Source: Myxococcales bacterium
GTDB taxonomy: Bacteria; Myxococcota_A; Polyangia; Fen-1088
Direction of reading: 5' to 3'
Assembly (NCBI GenBank): GCA_003157775.1
Contig: PMKP01000223.1
Coordinates: 1 to 47,956, forward strand
Length of the DNA stretch: 47,956 bases
A program made the translations under genes and the position numbers. Of this stretch, positions 10,698-18,181 are shown piece by piece (the first letter of the stretch is position 1; each line of letters starts with the position of its first letter). Under the pieces are notes generated by a model that worked only from the letters and a program-made list of their open reading frames with translations, made no database searches and was not told the DNA's origin.

Positions 10698-11750
10698 ATG
10701 CTGCAGCAGATTCCTGACACACTGGACTTCGGCAAGGTTACCCTCAACACCACCGCCAGAGGCGCCATCACCCTGACCAACAACGGCAGTGATGTTTGCC
10801 AGGTTTCTGGCCTCGACTTCGGCCCAAGCACCGACCCGGGCTTTGGGTTTGACCCGGACCAGGCACGCGCCTTCACGGTTGCGCCAGGGTTGAGCCAGGC
10901 TATCTCCGTCACTTTCGGCGCGTTCGACAGTGCGCCGCCGCACCTTCGGACCGGGACAGTGGTTCTGCAAACTGGCAACTCGCGTTCGCCGACGGCGTCG
11001 ATCGAATTGTCAGCCACCGTCAGCACGGCCTGCGTCGAGGCCAGCCAGTGGATTTACATCGTGGACGGAACCAGCAGCATGTTCTCGCGCTTTGATCCAG
11101 CTACGTTGACCTTCACCGACATCGGTGTGCTCGACTGTCCGGGAGATTCCACGCCCTATTCGATGGCGGTCGATCAGGACGCGGTTGCTTGGGTGGTATA
11201 CGGCGACGGCCAGCTCTATAAGGTGGATACCAGAACTGCACGGTGCGAGGCGACCAGCTTCCAGGTGGGACAGCATGGGATTATCACATTTGGAATGGGT
11301 TTCGTGTTCGCGCCGGCAAAGGACGTGGATACTCTCTACATCGCCGGTAGCGACGAGACTGGCTACACCAAGCTGGCCACCGTGGCGTTTCCTTCGCTGG
11401 TGGTAACGCCGATTGGGACCGTGACGGCCGGTGATGTGGAGCTGACCGGAACGGGTGACGGCAGCTTGTGGGGCTTCGTCCCGTCCGGGGCCAACCCAGA
11501 CGACCAGTCGGTGCTGGTGCGGCTCGATCCGGCCAGCGGCGCGACGCTGGAGAGCTACTCCTACCCGACTGTCGTGGGAGACACGTCTTGGGCCATGAAA
11601 TTCTGGGGCGGATCGTTCTGGATCTTCCTCGACGGGGCGGTGTATGAGGCGCCACGCGCCACGCCGCAAACCATCCGCACCGTCATCGCCGATACTGCTG
11701 GCCGCGACATCGTGGGCGCGGGGGTATCGACCTGCGCACCGCTATTCTAG
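10698..11750 (+). CDS. Ig-like (ASH/choice-of-anchor D type) domain plus beta-propeller protein; no signal peptide, possibly 5'-truncated
   Basis: PDTLDFGKV...ITLTNNGS...FTVAPG...VTF Ig motif; propeller-like repeats ending IVGAGVSTCAP; in-frame TAG at 10674. Confidence 0.7.
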   Translation: MLQQIPDTLDFGKVTLNTTARGAITLTNNGSDVCQVSGLDFGPSTDPGFGFDPDQARAFTVAPGLSQAISVTFGAFDSAPPHLRTGTVVLQTGNSRSPTASIELSATVSTACVEASQWIYIVDGTSSMFSRFDPATLTFTDIGVLDCPGDSTPYSMAVDQDAVAWVVYGDGQLYKVDTRTARCEATSFQVGQHGIITFGMGFVFAPAKDVDTLYIAGSDETGYTKLATVAFPSLVVTPIGTVTAGDVELTGTGDGSLWGFVPSGANPDDQSVLVRLDPASGATLESYSYPTVVGDTSWAMKFWGGSFWIFLDGAVYEAPRATPQTIRTVIADTAGRDIVGAGVSTCAPLF

Positions 11751-12724: not shown

Positions 12725-14410
12725 CTACTGTGGCTGCGTGTAGGGCACGCCGTTGGCATTGCAAAGGTAGAAGGCCTGGTACTGGGGGTCCGTCACTAGC
12801 CCCTTTTGGGTGGTCCAACTGATCGAGGCGCAGGAGGGACGGCAGCAGTCCTCCATGGTGGTGGTTTCGTACATATTGTTGGAACTGCCGGTCTTGGAGC
12901 GAAAGTCCGGATCCTTGGCTGCCTGCGCTGCAGTCGTCACGTTCTTTTTCACTGCGGGCAATCCCTGGGGTGCCAGCTTGCAGCCGGTGACTCGGGTGAG
13001 ATTCTCGGGGCACTCGACCTTCGCCACGTAGACCGACCAGTTGAGGTGATAGAAGGTATCGATCGTGTTCGCCTTGATGCAGCCACTTTGAGACTGCTGG
13101 GTCAGACCTGGGATATTCGAAGCGATCTCATCGCAGGCGTTTGCGGTCTTCTGTACGCAAGCCGGAGAGGTCAGGGTCGCCTCGGTAACCCAACTAACCG
13201 CGGTCTTGCACTCCTGATAGAGGCTTGCAGGCTTTACCCCACCTTGGCTTGGCTGACCGTCGGCTGGGTAACTGGTGTACATGTAGAGGCCCGATCCCGA
13301 CTTGGCTATGACATTGCCGCTGCTATCAACCACTCGCGCGCAGGCGTTGTTGGCCCCCAACCCACCGGCGGGCATGTACACGTCGAAAGTCGTCGGTGTG
13401 GCCCCCGTGTTGAATGCCTGCGCGATGAGCGGAGGCGGAACCGGGATGGCCGAGGCTGGAGGATTGGGATTGTCGGGATTGAGCTGCACTTGCCGGTCGT
13501 TGCTGGGGCTCGGATAGGCATAGACCAGTTGGTAGCATTGACAGCAGGCACTCTGAGCGTTGCCGTCGATCCCTCCTGGATCCCCAACGTCGTGTCCGAC
13601 AACCGCGTAGTGAAAGCCAATGTTTCCGTCGTCCGCCGCGGCTTGTTCCATCTCGGGGCTGAACAACTGGTTCCGCTGGCACATGAAGGTCATGTCGGGC
13701 TGAGCCTTGGTGCCGGTGGGGGGGGCCGCACAAGCGTTGGCGACCGTGCATTTCCCGCCACAGTCAGTGGTCGTGTCCCCGTCCAGACACCCCGTCTTGG
13801 CGTTGTAGTCGTAGGGGATGAAGTCTTGATCGTGGCACTGATCGGGCGGCGGAAGCTTGTAGCTAACTGCGCTGCCACCCGCTCCCCCCGCGTCACCGGT
13901 CGTACCGGCTGTGCCACCGGCTCCCGCATTGCCCCCGCCGGCAGCCATGCCGCCGGCTCCGGCGTTTCCCCCGCTGACAGTCGAGCCGCCGGCTCCGGCA
14001 TTTCCCCCGCTGACAGTCGAGCCGCCGGTTCGGGTATTTCCCCCACTGGCAGTCGACCCGCCCGCTGGTTGCGTGCCGCCGACTGGTTGCGTGCCGCCGC
14101 TACTCGGGGCGCCGCCCATCGCCGTCGAGCCTGCCGTGGCGGTGGAGCCGCCCGTGCTCGTGCCGCCCGTGGTTGATCCGCCGTTTCCACCGGCAGCCGA
14201 CGAGCTTGAGGAGCCTGCGGAGCCGCCGTTCCCCGAGGCACCTCCGCTGCTCGTGCTTCCTCCTGCCGGCTTCGTGGAAGGCCCCGTCGATCCGCCATTG
14301 CCAGACCCAGTTGCCGTCACCTTGGCGCACGCCCCGACTCCTGCCATCAATGCGCACACGGCCCCTGTCGTTATGAGTCGTGGGAGTCGTATAGTCGCGA
14401 TGAAAGCCAT
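12725..14410 (-). CDS. GH45-like endoglucanase lipoprotein, circularly permuted catalytic domain, Gly-rich stalk
   Basis: Start MAFIATIRL (14410), lipobox VGAC; FMCQRNQ, CCQCYQLVY, FDVYMPAGGLG, VECPENLTRVTGC, then C-terminal TTTMEDCCRPSC...FYLCNAN. Confidence 0.8.
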   Translation of the reverse strand: MAFIATIRLPRLITTGAVCALMAGVGACAKVTATGSGNGGSTGPSTKPAGGSTSSGGASGNGGSAGSSSSSAAGGNGGSTTGGTSTGGSTATAGSTAMGGAPSSGGTQPVGGTQPAGGSTASGGNTRTGGSTVSGGNAGAGGSTVSGGNAGAGGMAAGGGNAGAGGTAGTTGDAGGAGGSAVSYKLPPPDQCHDQDFIPYDYNAKTGCLDGDTTTDCGGKCTVANACAAPPTGTKAQPDMTFMCQRNQLFSPEMEQAAADDGNIGFHYAVVGHDVGDPGGIDGNAQSACCQCYQLVYAYPSPSNDRQVQLNPDNPNPPASAIPVPPPLIAQAFNTGATPTTFDVYMPAGGLGANNACARVVDSSGNVIAKSGSGLYMYTSYPADGQPSQGGVKPASLYQECKTAVSWVTEATLTSPACVQKTANACDEIASNIPGLTQQSQSGCIKANTIDTFYHLNWSVYVAKVECPENLTRVTGCKLAPQGLPAVKKNVTTAAQAAKDPDFRSKTGSSNNMYETTTMEDCCRPSCASISWTTQKGLVTDPQYQAFYLCNANGVPYTQPQ

Positions 14411-14519
14411 ATGAGTAGAGTAGCTATGTCCCGCGGATTTGGAAAGGGACCCGCGCGCAGTAACAGTTCGCGCGGCGGGCTGTGGAGATCTACGCACGTC
14501 TTGGCGGTAGCTGGCACGG

Positions 14520-16592
14520 TCAACGCACTGGCCGTGAAACTCGGTGGCTCGCAGCGGTTGAGCGACGGTGCGTGCTTGGTGGCTTGTTCGCAGGGGGACG
14601 GGCTCGGCGGGCCTGCTGGTGGTCAGGCGGGACCAGGCAGTCCCGGCCGTTGCCGATGAGATCTCTCCGGCCCAGGTGGACGAGGGCAGCGCGAAGTAGC
14701 GGCCAGTTTTCCGGATCGTGGTAGCGCAGAAATGCCTTGTGCAGCCGGCGCTCTTTCTCGCCGCGGGCCACGTAGACTTCTTCGCCGCCGCGCCGGCGCA
14801 GGGGACGCAGGGGGTTCTTGCCTGTGTGGTACATGGCTGTGGCAGTGGCCATGGGTGTGGGCAGAAAGGCTTGCACCTGGTCGGGCCGGAAAGCGTTGCG
14901 CTTGCACCAGAGGGCGAGCGCCACCATGTCTCGCAGGGTGGTGCCCGGGTGCGCGGCGATGAAATAGGGAATGAGATACTGTTGCTTGCCCGCCTGGCGC
15001 GAGAAGCGTTCAAACAGCACGCGGAACTCCTCGAACGCGGCGATGCCGGGCTTGCCCATCTTGGCCAGCGGCCCGGGCTCACTGTGCTCAGGCGCGACCT
15101 TGAGGTAGCCACCCACGTGGTGCCTGACCAGCTCTTCGATATAGGCGGGCGAGGCCAGGGCCAAGTCGTGGCGCACGCCTGAGCCGATGGTGATCTTCTT
15201 CACCCCTTCTGCCTGGCGCGCCCGCTGGTAGAGATCAATGAGCGGGCCGTGGTCGGTATCGAGGTTGGGACAGATGCCTGGGAAAAGGCACGAGGGCCGG
15301 CGGCACGCTGCCTCGATCAAAGGGTTCTTGCATGCCAGCCGATACATGTTGGCGGTGGGCCCGCCCAGATCGGAAATCACTCCCGTGAAGCCGGGCGTTC
15401 TCTCGCGTACCGACGCGATCTCGCGCAAGACCGACTCGGGCGATCGGCTTTGGATGATGCGACCTTCGTGTTCAGTGAGCGAGCAGAAGGTGCAGCCGCC
15501 AAAGCATCCGCGCATGATGGCGATCGAGCACTTGATCATCTCATACGCGGGAATGCGCGCGCCGCCATAGCTCGGGTGGGGCCGGCGCGAAAAGGGAAGA
15601 TCGTAGACGGCGTCCAGCTCTGCTGTGGTGAGCGGCAGAGCCGGCGGATTGACCCACAGGTCCCGGCTGCCGTGCCGCTGCAGCAAGGCGCGCGCGTTAC
15701 CCGGATTGGATTCGAGATGGACGATGCGCGAGGCGTGGGCGTAAAGAACCGGATCTTTGGCCACCGCTTCGAAACTGGGCAGGCGGATGACCTGTCCGTT
15801 GGACCCACGCCTACGGCCGATGGTGGTGCAATCGATCTGATATGGCTTTGGCGCCTTGGCTGACAGGGCGAAGGCCGTGCCGCGCACGTCGGTGATCGCT
15901 GCGACTGGCTCGCCCGCGGCCAGACGACGGGCGATCTCGACCACCTGGCGCTCGCCGTTGCCGTAGACGAGCAGGTCCGCCTTGGAATCGAAAAGCACGG
16001 ATCGCCGCACCTTGTCCGACCAGTAGTCATAATGAGCGACCCGGCGCAGGCTGGCTTCGATGCCGCCGATGACCACGGGCACGTCGGGAAAGGCTTCGCG
16101 GCAACGTTGGGCGTAGACTGTGACCGCGCGTTCCGGCCGCAGGCCAGGCTTTGCGTCCGGCGAATACGCGTCATCGCTGCGCACCCGCTTCTCCGCGGTG
16201 AAAAGATTCACCATCGAGTCCATGTTCCCGGCGGTCACGCCGAACATGAGGGCAGGGCGGCCGAGGCAGGCGAATGCGGTTGCCGAACGCCAGTCGGGTT
16301 GGGCGATGATTCCGACGCGAAAGCCCTGTTCCTCCAGCACCCGGCCGATCAGCGCTGCGCCGAAGCTCGGGTGATCGACGTAGGCGTCGCCGGTCACCAG
16401 GATGACGTCGCAGCATTCCCAGCCGAGCTGCTCCATCTCGGCGCGCGACATGGGCAGGACCGGCGCCACGCCGAAACGATGCGCCCAGTACTTTCGCCGC
16501 GCGAACAGGGTTGGGCGCAATCGATTGGGCGAGACGATCTGCCAGCGGGAGGAGGTAGGCATCGAAGCTTCTTTGCCATCGGGTGTAGGCAT
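14520..16592 (-). CDS. ygiQ: YgiQ-family radical SAM protein (UPF0313)
   Basis: [60 protein letters not shown]. Confidence 0.95.
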
Positions 16593-16783: not shown

Positions 16784-18181
16784 ATGATTGCATCTCGGTG
16801 TTCAGGTTTGGCATCTTTGTTGTCGCTGGGGTTGGCTGCCAGCCTGGCTGGCTGTTTGTCAGACGACCAGGGTTTGGCCGATCCATCGCCGCCAGTGTCC
16901 GGCGTCCAGTTCGCGTTGTCTACCAGCGGCCTCCCGACCTGCAGCAAGTCCGTAGACGGTGAAATCTGGTACGTGTGGAGTTCTAGCAATTTCTATGTCT
17001 GCAAGGGTTCTACCGCGACATGGACCGTGACCAACATCAGTGGCCTTAGTGCGGCAGTACGCGTGACTCCACTGAGCGCGGGCACAGCGTGCCCCGCTGG
17101 TGGAATGACCGTCCAATTCGGGCTGGACACGAACCGGAACGGGAAGCTGGACGATTCCGAGGTGGCGACCAGCACGAATGTCTGCAACGGCACCAATGGG
17201 GCGACAGGCGCCACCGGGGCGACAGGCGCTACCGGGGCCACGGGCGCCACCGGCCCGCAGGGTGCCAACGGGACTCCAGGAGCCACGGGAGCGACAGGCG
17301 CCACCGGGGCCACGGGCGCTACCGGCCCGCAGGGTGCCAACGGGCTCAACGGAAACAATGGGCTCAACGGAAACAACGGGCTCAACGGCGCTCCAGGTGC
17401 CACCGGGGCTACCGGGCCGAACTCCCTGGTCACGCTTACGCCTGAACCGGCAGGGACCAACTGTGCAAACGGCGGCGTCAAAATTGAGACGGGGCTCGAC
17501 AAGAACGGGGACAACATCCTGAGTGCCGACGAAGTGACGGACACGCAGTACGTATGCGATGGGGCCACTGGAGCAACCGGGGCGACGGGCGCGACAGGCG
17601 CAACGGGCGCGACGGGCCCCACTGGCGCAACGGGCGCTACCGGGGCAGCCGGGCCCAAAGGTGCGACAGGCGCAACGGGCGCCACAGGCGCGACGGGCGC
17701 GACAGGCGCAACGGGCGCGACAGGGGCGACGGGCGCAACGGGCGCGGCCGCCTACGCCCCGATCGTCACCTCTTGCAATAGTTATTACGCATCGGCCAAT
17801 CTCACCTCCGACAGCTACTACGACTACTTTGGCTGCTACATCTACGCGCCCGTCGCGGGCGGCACCGCCGTTGTGTCCGGAAACGCTCACTACTGGGTAT
17901 ACCGCGACGACGACACCTTCGACCTTATTTACATCTATGTCGGTAGCGCGTCCCTCTGCGCGGCCGGTTGCGATCTCGCAAACGCGCACAGGCAAGAGTA
18001 CAACTCCAACGCGGCGACGTACTGGAACCAGGAATCCGCCTCTGCGAGCGACACCTACTACTACGTCCCGGCGGGTTCCAATGCGTACTACTTGACCTCA
18101 TATTTTTCCACCAACGGATCGACCACGGTCTATTGGGATTCGGGCGCGATGTCCATAACCTGGTATCCGCCGGCGCCTTAG
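16784..18181 (+). CDS. Collagen-like lipoprotein with two Cys-bounded DxNxNG modules and a Tyr-rich C-terminal head
   Basis: GGAGG RBS; lipobox LAGC; two GXY tracts; modules CPAGG...[15 protein letters not shown]...VC and CANGG...[15 protein letters not shown]...VC. Confidence 0.85.
17189..17746 (+). repeat. Collagen-like Gly-Ala-Thr triplet tracts (17189-17419 and 17561-17746)
   Basis: 9-bp periodic GGNGCNACN repeats. Confidence 0.9.

Follow-up and report, generated by a model that had tools for sequence, protein, structure and literature searches.

Glycoside hydrolase family 45 (GH45) comprises small industrial cellulases that are enzymatic cousins of the expansins. In an ordinary GH45 enzyme, the first ~40 residues form the first strand of the barrel and carry the catalytic base, an Asp in a YWDCC motif, along with three disulfide cysteines. 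Disulfide bridges connect the cysteines of the DCC..C motif with the CC.C and PGGG..C segments. A natural circular permutation that retained the catalytic machinery is known from the GH70 glucansucrases, a separate CAZy lineage, in relation to GH13, but this serves as an analogy only, being a (β/α)8 barrel with a chemistry other than that of GH45. In EGV of Humicola insolens, an inverting GH45 enzyme, Asp121 is the proton donor and Asp10 the base, 11.3 Å apart; the available excerpt of the same source describes the HFD Asp as common to expansins, and the equivalent of Asp10 as missing from GH45 subfamily C and from expansins (PMC5829257). Here we describe the gene for a protein, P0001, on a 47,956-nucleotide contig of a peat-soil Myxococcales bacterium (PMKP01000223.1 of assembly GCA_003157775.1, taken at its full length and referred to as the window), the C-terminal domain of which is homologous to GH45 with its segments in circularly permuted order.

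We compared P0001 with the subfamily A enzymes of H. insolens (EGV/Cel45A; 2ENG, 3ENG, 4ENG and 1HD5), Melanocarpus albomyces (1OA7 and 1L8F), Thielavia terrestris (5GLX and 5GLY), Neurospora crassa (6MVI and 6MVJ) and a springtail (5H4U). Common to all are the fold, both catalytic Asp residues, an accessory part linked to the catalytic domain, and the motifs DCCxPSC, CCxCY, FDxxxPGGGxG and VxCPxxLxxxTGC. Unlike the subfamily A enzymes, however, P0001 carries the initial ~40 residues with the base Asp at its C-terminus, behind a connector of 38 residues, and it has an insertion of ~60 residues before VECP, a Cys-rich N-terminal extension and no match to PF02015. Subfamilies B and C of GH45, domain 1 of expansins, loosenins and cerato-platanins share the double-psi β-barrel and the acid Asp on the (H)FD strand with P0001 (Z 2-3.2), but are threaded in the canonical strand order. 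The Asp10-type base that is kept in the permuted family is lacking in subfamily C and expansins, according to the excerpt of PMC5829257 cited above.

The source genome also encodes a canonical GH45 paralogue, P0270 (403 residues; contig C170, L001:1498-2706, minus strand), which matches PF02015 over positions 1-212 of 214 (E 3.9e-37) and is the only protein that PF02015 detected in a six-frame search of this genome. It is built like P0001, from a signal peptide with a Cys, a linker of Gly, Thr and Ser and a catalytic domain at the C-terminus, but its segments follow the normal order and the catalytic domain starts with TTRYWDCCKPACGW. Homology between the two is visible at the profile level only; BLASTP aligned P0001 with P0270 over no more than 12 residues (TTTMEDCCRPSC to TTRYWDCCKPAC, E 0.023). 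P0270 provides a natural control for comparing the permuted with the normal form.

GH45 homology in permuted segment order

Translation of positions 12728-14410 on the minus strand reproduced exactly the motif order reported in the preliminary description of this DNA: FMCQRNQ, CCQCYQLVY, NTGATPTTFDVYMPAGGLG, VECPENLTRVTGC, a connector, and then TTTMEDCCRPSCASISW...FYLCNANGVPYTQPQ followed by the stop. The catalytic Asp residues that had been placed at ~13383 and ~12849 fall in the TFD and MEDCC codons listed in Table 1. The interval proposed there, 12725-13863, covers the catalytic domain (377 residues, window 12728-13858) but not the whole gene, which most likely extends to 14410, and the connector is present but measures 38 residues rather than ~30.

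Comparison of a profile of 22 close homologues (A1) with the sequences of the Protein Data Bank (PDB) gave five distinct sequences at E ≤ 10, and all five were GH45 enzymes aligned in permuted segment order. On the top-scoring chain, 1oa7, profile positions 329-341 aligned with residues 6-18 (TRYWDCCKPSC), while positions 104-116, 144-178 and 274-295 aligned with residues 81-94 (CCACY), 101-137 (HFDLNIPGGGVG) and 183-204 (VQCPEELVARTGC), respectively. A wider profile of 63 sequences, with identities down to 26% (A2), matched 10 GH45 crystal-structure sequences with E-values from 1.5e-19 to 2.5e-16, and the next match had an E-value of 1.5. Each of the 10 matches consisted of three stretches, in which profile positions 113-194, 267-306 and 333-372 aligned with chain residues 67-138, 164-204 and 4-37. 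The base, Asp10, sits in chain residues 4-37 and hence in the part aligned to the last piece of the profile. These searches, together with the hhalign comparisons given below, demonstrate significant sequence homology to characterised GH45 enzymes, and the canonical order, with the base strand N-terminal and VxCP...TGC C-terminal, was reversed in every alignment.

The rearrangement was also evident when canonical GH45 served as the query. With a hidden Markov model (HMM) built from 121 canonical bacterial GH45 sequences, nine of nine permuted proteins matched model positions ~4 to 64 after positions 70-221. P0233, a distant permuted member, matched positions 72-221 at 40 bits and, downstream, positions 7-40 at 18 bits. 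When the same model was run over the 78,797 six-frame open reading frames (ORFs) of the source genome, the canonical gene ranked first (E 2.7e-108), a second permuted paralogue on contig C144 ranked second with its segments out of order (3.3e-6), and the P0001 gene came third (0.0032), followed by the next frame at 0.16. In addition, a sub-HMM of the 45 N-terminal columns found the C-terminus of the C144 paralogue genome-wide (E 2.1e-4). P0233 further matched the permuted-family profile (E 6.6e-13) as well as PF02015, the latter above the cut-off at 50.7 bits but limited to positions 40-213; the C-terminal end of P0233 reads TTTMDCCKPTCAW. Judged by its sequence, P0233 is an intermediate member between the permuted family and PF02015.

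Profile-profile alignment with hhalign resolved the domain into two matches to the profile of the 121 canonical bacterial sequences. With A1, query residues 19-293 aligned with template positions 30-221 (E 5e-8) and residues 329-373 with positions 7-42 (E 0.004). With A2, the same core ranges were aligned over 191 columns (probability 98.9, E 3e-17), and the tail, residues 324-377, matched positions 2-46 (probability 93, E 3.5e-7); A2 residues 318-377 alone aligned with template 2-46 at a probability of 96.7 and an E-value of 4.1e-10. In-silico re-permutation, which had been proposed as a check, gave the expected outcome: rotating the alignment at residues 296-320 merged both matches into one colinear alignment of 207 columns over template positions 7-221. 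The Viterbi score of hhalign was unchanged by rotation (60.0 throughout), and the aligned range alone changed. HMMER searches of doubled sequences gave no single domain across the junction, owing to the long N-terminal parts in between. Taken together, the out-of-order HMMER stretches, the two hhalign matches over canonical positions 2-221, the single colinear alignment after rotation and a structural alignment that starts at chain residues 25-27 (see below) support the circular permutation of the GH45 domain suggested in the preliminary description. Protein-language-model features agreed in family, since the clusters nearest to the domain were those of PF02015 (score 0.94).

Canonical positions ~30-46 (KTCGKDGTST type) aligned to both ends of the domain, namely to FYLCNANGVPYT at the C-terminus (domain residues ~356-377, window 12728-12790) and to KTGCLDGDTTT at the N-terminus (domain residues ~19-35, window 13750-13804). 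This double alignment could go back to a duplication in the course of the permutation. The match of the N-terminal 62 residues to the canonical profile was not significant by itself (E 0.021, probability 2.2), and the terminal redundancy therefore stays speculative.

Predicted fold and conserved catalytic residues

An AlphaFold model computed from A2 had a mean predicted local distance difference test score (pLDDT) of 96.4 and a predicted template-modelling score of 0.94, with no segment below a pLDDT of 50; it replaced an earlier run with 22 homologues (pLDDT 69.2). Foldseek returned 10 matches at E ≤ 1e-3, all of them GH45, and the next lay at 2.5. Structural alignment to GH45 chains with VIA-align gave Z-scores of 11.3-12.4 and root-mean-square deviations (rmsd) of 3.1-3.2 Å for 169-177 of 205-217 residues. 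The aligned range ran from model residue 3 to ~305, equivalent to chain residue 25 or 27 to the end, and left out model residues 307-377 along with ~24 residues at the canonical N-terminus. Such omissions from a sequential alignment are what a permutation predicts.

A scan of 48,161 PDB representatives that did not depend on Foldseek identified two chains at Z ≥ 5, both subfamily A GH45 enzymes (Z 12.3 and 12.2; rmsd 3.1-3.2 Å over 175-176 of 213-217 residues). The other 16 rows, with Z-scores of 2-3.2, were mostly double-psi barrels and included GH45 subfamilies B (3.2) and C (2.9), expansins, cerato-platanins, barwin-like proteins, kiwellin, CDC48 N-domains and an MltA-type protein. The model has the subfamily A fold, a six-stranded double-psi β-barrel with loop and helix elaborations; this fold had been set beforehand as a test of the permutation. 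We infer that the transposed strand is equivalent in three dimensions to canonical strand 1 and that the same barrel groove is reassembled.

Both catalytic Asp residues are retained, as had been noticed from the single sequence: the residue equivalent to the base (domain D337) is Asp in all 63 sequences of A2, and that equivalent to the acid (domain D159) is Asp in 62 of them. The GG.G motif is kept in 63/63, and little or no variation is seen in the cysteines of DCC..C, CC.C, the post-PAGG region, VECP and FYLC. Given the bridge pattern of canonical GH45, the joint conservation of these cysteines would argue for a transposed segment that packs in its old place.

The permuted lineage and its predicted function

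Relatives of the domain were numerous, 738 being recovered at E ≤ 1e-3 among 3,557 candidates from a protein collection clustered at 90% identity. Where names were given, they read 'hypothetical protein' or Polyangiaceae metagenome-assembled genome (MAG) protein, and the 738 are devoid of Pfam domains except for PF11842 on P0018, which stems from read-through of an adjoining gene. When 1.84 billion cluster representatives were searched with the profile, 183 proteins reached E ≤ 1e-3, 126 of them with E ≤ 1e-10. Among the 150 representatives listed, 60 span the profile from position 110 or earlier to 340 or later, and all 60 are colinear with P0001. A pattern search of species-representative genomes had 213 matches, of which 206 code for a relative (tblastn E ≤ 1e-3). 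The best 80 of these 206 loci are all from MAGs, are colinear with P0001 and are mostly nearly full length; by label, 14 belong to Fibrobacter, Fibrobacteria, Fibrobacterota or Chitinispirillaceae, 65 are of Myxococcota, deltaproteobacterium or Proteobacteria type, and one is an 'uncultured bacterium'. The family is sparse within the phylum sample, occurring in 4 of 401 genomes with the source genome counted.

The C144 paralogue of the source genome (C144:1737-2786, L006) is 47% identical to P0001 over the domain and has a LAANC lipobox-like signal, NFDVFMAAGGFG and TTTMQDCC; an X in its linker corresponds to an N in the contig. In another family of the phylum, contig C59 of genome G114 (14231-16475, L005/L007) bears two permuted copies side by side on divergent strands. 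Accessory modules were seen in P0129 (carbohydrate-binding module (CBM) 2 and three Big_7 domains), P0132 (two CBM3 and fn3) and P0255 (CBM1). Colinear relatives of 23-30% identity are also encoded on 13 giant-virus MAG contigs, and FDxYMxGGxG precedes TTMxDCC in 10 of these 13 loci, where the stop comes 36-43 residues after the latter motif; the TTMxDCC pattern was unmatched in two of the others and the first motif in one. These relatives share the segment rearrangement of P0001, which differs from them in its bacterial host (a Polyangiaceae-type MAG), its probable lipoprotein signal and its membership of a clade that lacks the loop Asp. A eukaryotic origin considered at first for P0225, P0235 and P0255 is no more than a possibility, as giant-virus contigs encode such proteins too.

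Permuted GH45 homologues are thus a real and widespread lineage that standard annotation models bypass. The resulting annotation gap (738 clusters at 90% identity and 206 loci in species-representative genomes) means that cellulases are probably undercounted in surveys of carbohydrate-active enzymes that deal with giant viruses or with the Myxococcota and Fibrobacterota of peat, soil and wetland. We found neither a description nor a catalogue entry of a permuted GH45 in literature searches, to which CAZy, dbCAN and the supplementary tables of the Fibrobacter and peat-MAG papers, where such genes may be listed, did not belong. One candidate report, PMC6165527, was discarded, as 'permuted' refers to a GH3 reference in the available part of that paper. 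P0001 is a bacterial, probably lipid-anchored member of this lineage.

We consider it likely that the P0001 domain, a circularly permuted homologue of the subfamily A endoglucanases, belongs to a secreted and probably lipid-anchored inverting β-1,4-glucanase, and that it is catalytic. The base-carrying segment follows the normal C-terminus (VECP...TGC) behind the connector, and the new N-terminus is near canonical residue 25-40. According to this proposal, the reassembled double-psi β-barrel groove would present Asp343 (TFD) as the proton donor and Asp521 (MEDCC) as the base. Chains of β-1,4-glucan of the cellulose type would then be cut with inversion by an enzyme held at the cell surface on its long Gly/Ser/Thr stalk. 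Fibrobacterota are a phylum of fibre degraders, and their share in the family, the CBMs of relatives, the canonical GH45 in the same genome and the PF02015-like features of the domain are the reasons for favouring a surface-tethered inverting β-1,4-endoglucanase. If the base-carrying first strand can come from the C-terminus, a natural lineage of this kind would show that the barrel tolerates re-threading, which is relevant to protein engineering and to the evolution of double-psi barrels.

Several observations weigh against this proposal. Neither Pfam nor NCBIfam assigned a family at E ≤ 10 to the whole of P0001 or to the domain alone, and P0001 does not reach the gathering score of PF02015 (27 bits), the curated definition of GH45; a phmmer search of the PDB sequences with the single sequence likewise gave no match at E ≤ 10. 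The partial match to a linear HMM that had been anticipated was not obtained with PF02015 for P0001, and occurs instead in the distant P0233. The TTTMEDCC tail of P0001 itself was not significant genome-wide against the N-terminal sub-HMM (E 2.6), and the significance of the tail derives from the family profile (the hhalign match at E 4.1e-10) rather than from the P0001 sequence alone. In the active site, and in contrast to subfamily A, RYW is replaced by TME, so that Met stands in place of the conserved Tyr, as it does in 62 of 63 family sequences. P0001 has Thr instead of the His of HFD, a position that is mostly Asn, Thr, Gln, Ser or Ala, and rarely His, across the family. The GGDLG loop Asp is absent from the P0001 clade, where the loop reads TGATPTT; its loss, as stated in the preliminary description, applies to P0001 and close relatives and does not extend to the family as a whole, in which 20 of 63 sequences keep a loop Asp and 8 of 63 a G[GSF]DV motif. 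RNA libraries offered a weak hint only: an exact 221-nt contig was present in the peat metatranscriptome X16, which may contain DNA, and contigs covered 5 of 30 bins of the gene in X16 and 15 of 30 in X17, mostly at 90-95% likeness, so that transcription is not shown thereby.

These changed residues around the Asp pair leave room for an expansin-like role or a shifted substrate. A GH45-fold protein that has lost hydrolysis, or nearly so, and binds and loosens cellulose or another fibre at the cell surface in the manner of expansins or loosenins would account for the substitution of Tyr and His and the missing loop Asp, and the low-Z structural neighbours include expansins, cerato-platanins, barwin and kiwellin. 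However, expansins, which share the HFD Asp, have no Asp10 equivalent in the excerpt of PMC5829257, and that residue is invariant in the permuted family along with a nearly invariant acid Asp; moreover, the strong matches in structure and sequence are to subfamily A enzymes (Z ~12), as opposed to Z 2-3 for expansins. We therefore regard a non-hydrolytic function as unlikely. An active glycanase with another substrate, such as mixed-linkage or other β-glucans, chitin or chitosan or, in a predatory myxobacterial lifestyle, the peptidoglycan or cell wall of prey, could explain the altered surroundings of the active site and the ~60-residue insertion between PAGG and VECP. Genes for a PF11790 glycosyl-hydrolase core and an F5/8 type C protein lie within 7 kb, the family is present in Chitinispirillaceae MAGs, and a putative transglycosylase is among the structural matches (Z 2.4). 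The last of these is far weaker than the match to GH45, an operon link to the neighbouring hydrolase genes is not shown, and the accessory modules of the relatives are of the cellulose-binding types CBM1, CBM2 and CBM3, which makes a non-cellulose substrate a rather improbable choice.

The apparent permutation could, in principle, be an artefact of chance motif likeness, misassembly, or a frameshifted or fused gene, given that Pfam finds nothing and that the source MAG is fragmented (485 contigs, 87% complete). This explanation is effectively refuted. The same order recurs in the 60 proteins among the 150 representatives listed and in the best 80 of 206 genomic loci, in a second paralogue within the genome and in the 10 of 13 giant-virus loci that keep the motif order. 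DNA contigs from two metagenome runs, one of them possibly the source sample, tile the P0001 gene unbroken, and the model is confident throughout. Returning to the permuted β-1,4-glucanase, we tentatively suggest, with rather less than full conviction, that one ancient permutation, probably by tandem duplication and trimming, gave rise to a deep, catalytically competent and PF02015-invisible GH45 lineage that moved between Myxococcota, Fibrobacterota and giant viruses. If so, the permuted lineage would merit its own GH45 subfamily, and the reshaped active site, with Met for Tyr, no His and, in the P0001 clade, no loop Asp, may confer a different specificity.

Gene features, locus and occurrence

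The most likely start codon of P0001 is the ATG at 14410, located 109 nt past the stop of an upstream radical-SAM gene (14520), whereas the longest ORF, from a GTG at 15112, overlaps that gene, the end of which is at 14520. The features of the gene are listed in Table 1. The VGAC lipobox makes Cys28 a plausible lipoprotein anchor, as the preliminary description had held, on the strength of a motif only; the strict lipobox pattern fits 37 of 85 full-length homologues, and others have ...[AS]C[AG]... by eye. The domain core holds CCQCY, TFDVYMPAGGLG and VECPENLTRVTGC, and shows the ~60-residue insertion relative to canonical GH45. In the model, the connector includes a short helix at residues 310-315 with a pLDDT above 90. 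The transposed segment consists of the strand MYETTTM, MEDCCRPSC and FYLCNANG.

Table 1. Features of the P0001 gene, in window coordinates
Feature	Position	Strand	Description or basis
Whole gene, P0001	12725..14410	-	561-residue precursor; coding 12728-14410; TAG stop 12725-12727
Signal peptide with VGAC lipobox-like motif (residues 25-28, Cys28)	14327..14410	-	MAFIATIRLPRLITTGAVCALMAGVGAC
Gly/Ser/Thr-rich low-complexity linker (residues 29-184, ~155 residues)	13859..14326	-	Protein sequence
Domain core (domain residues 19-293), colinear with canonical GH45 positions 30-221	12980..13804	-	hhalign, VIA-align
Asp343 (domain D159) in TFD, equivalent of the GH45 proton donor, H. insolens EGV Asp121	13382..13384	-	Alignment
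Connector (domain residues 294-328), from old C-terminus (TGC) to old N-terminus	12875..12979	-	No counterpart in canonical alignments
Transposed segment (domain residues 329-377), equivalent to canonical GH45 positions ~2-46	12728..12874	-	hhalign, HMMER
Asp521 (domain D337) in MEDCC, equivalent of the GH45 catalytic base, H. insolens EGV Asp10	12848..12850	-	Alignment to YWDCC

The gene directly upstream (14523-16592, minus strand) is of the YgiQ-type radical-SAM kind, with PF08497, PF04055 and PF11842 (DUF3362). In the relative P0018, of 753 residues, the gene call merges a GH45-like gene with its radical-SAM neighbour, the source of its PF11842 domain; the two genes thus seem to be conserved neighbours, with starts that are occasionally miscalled.

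A row of three minus-strand genes at a distance of 2-7 kb from the P0001 gene (5941-7503, 7587-8609 and 8645-10357) encodes a PF11790 glycosyl-hydrolase catalytic-core protein, an F5/8 type C (galactose-binding-like) protein and a 571-residue protein without a Pfam match, and is possibly a glycan-degrading neighbourhood. The surroundings of the P0001 gene revealed no operon that would link it to other cellulases. On the plus strand, 10698-11747 encodes a protein of 350 residues with an N-terminal HYDIN/ASH-type Ig-like domain just under the Pfam cut-offs, and 16784-18178 encodes a bacterial protein with collagen triple-helix repeats and two DUF7151 domains.

Near-identical DNA was detected in metagenome runs from peat, permafrost, soil and lake water, one of which may be the source sample, with at least half of the sampled words present in six of them.

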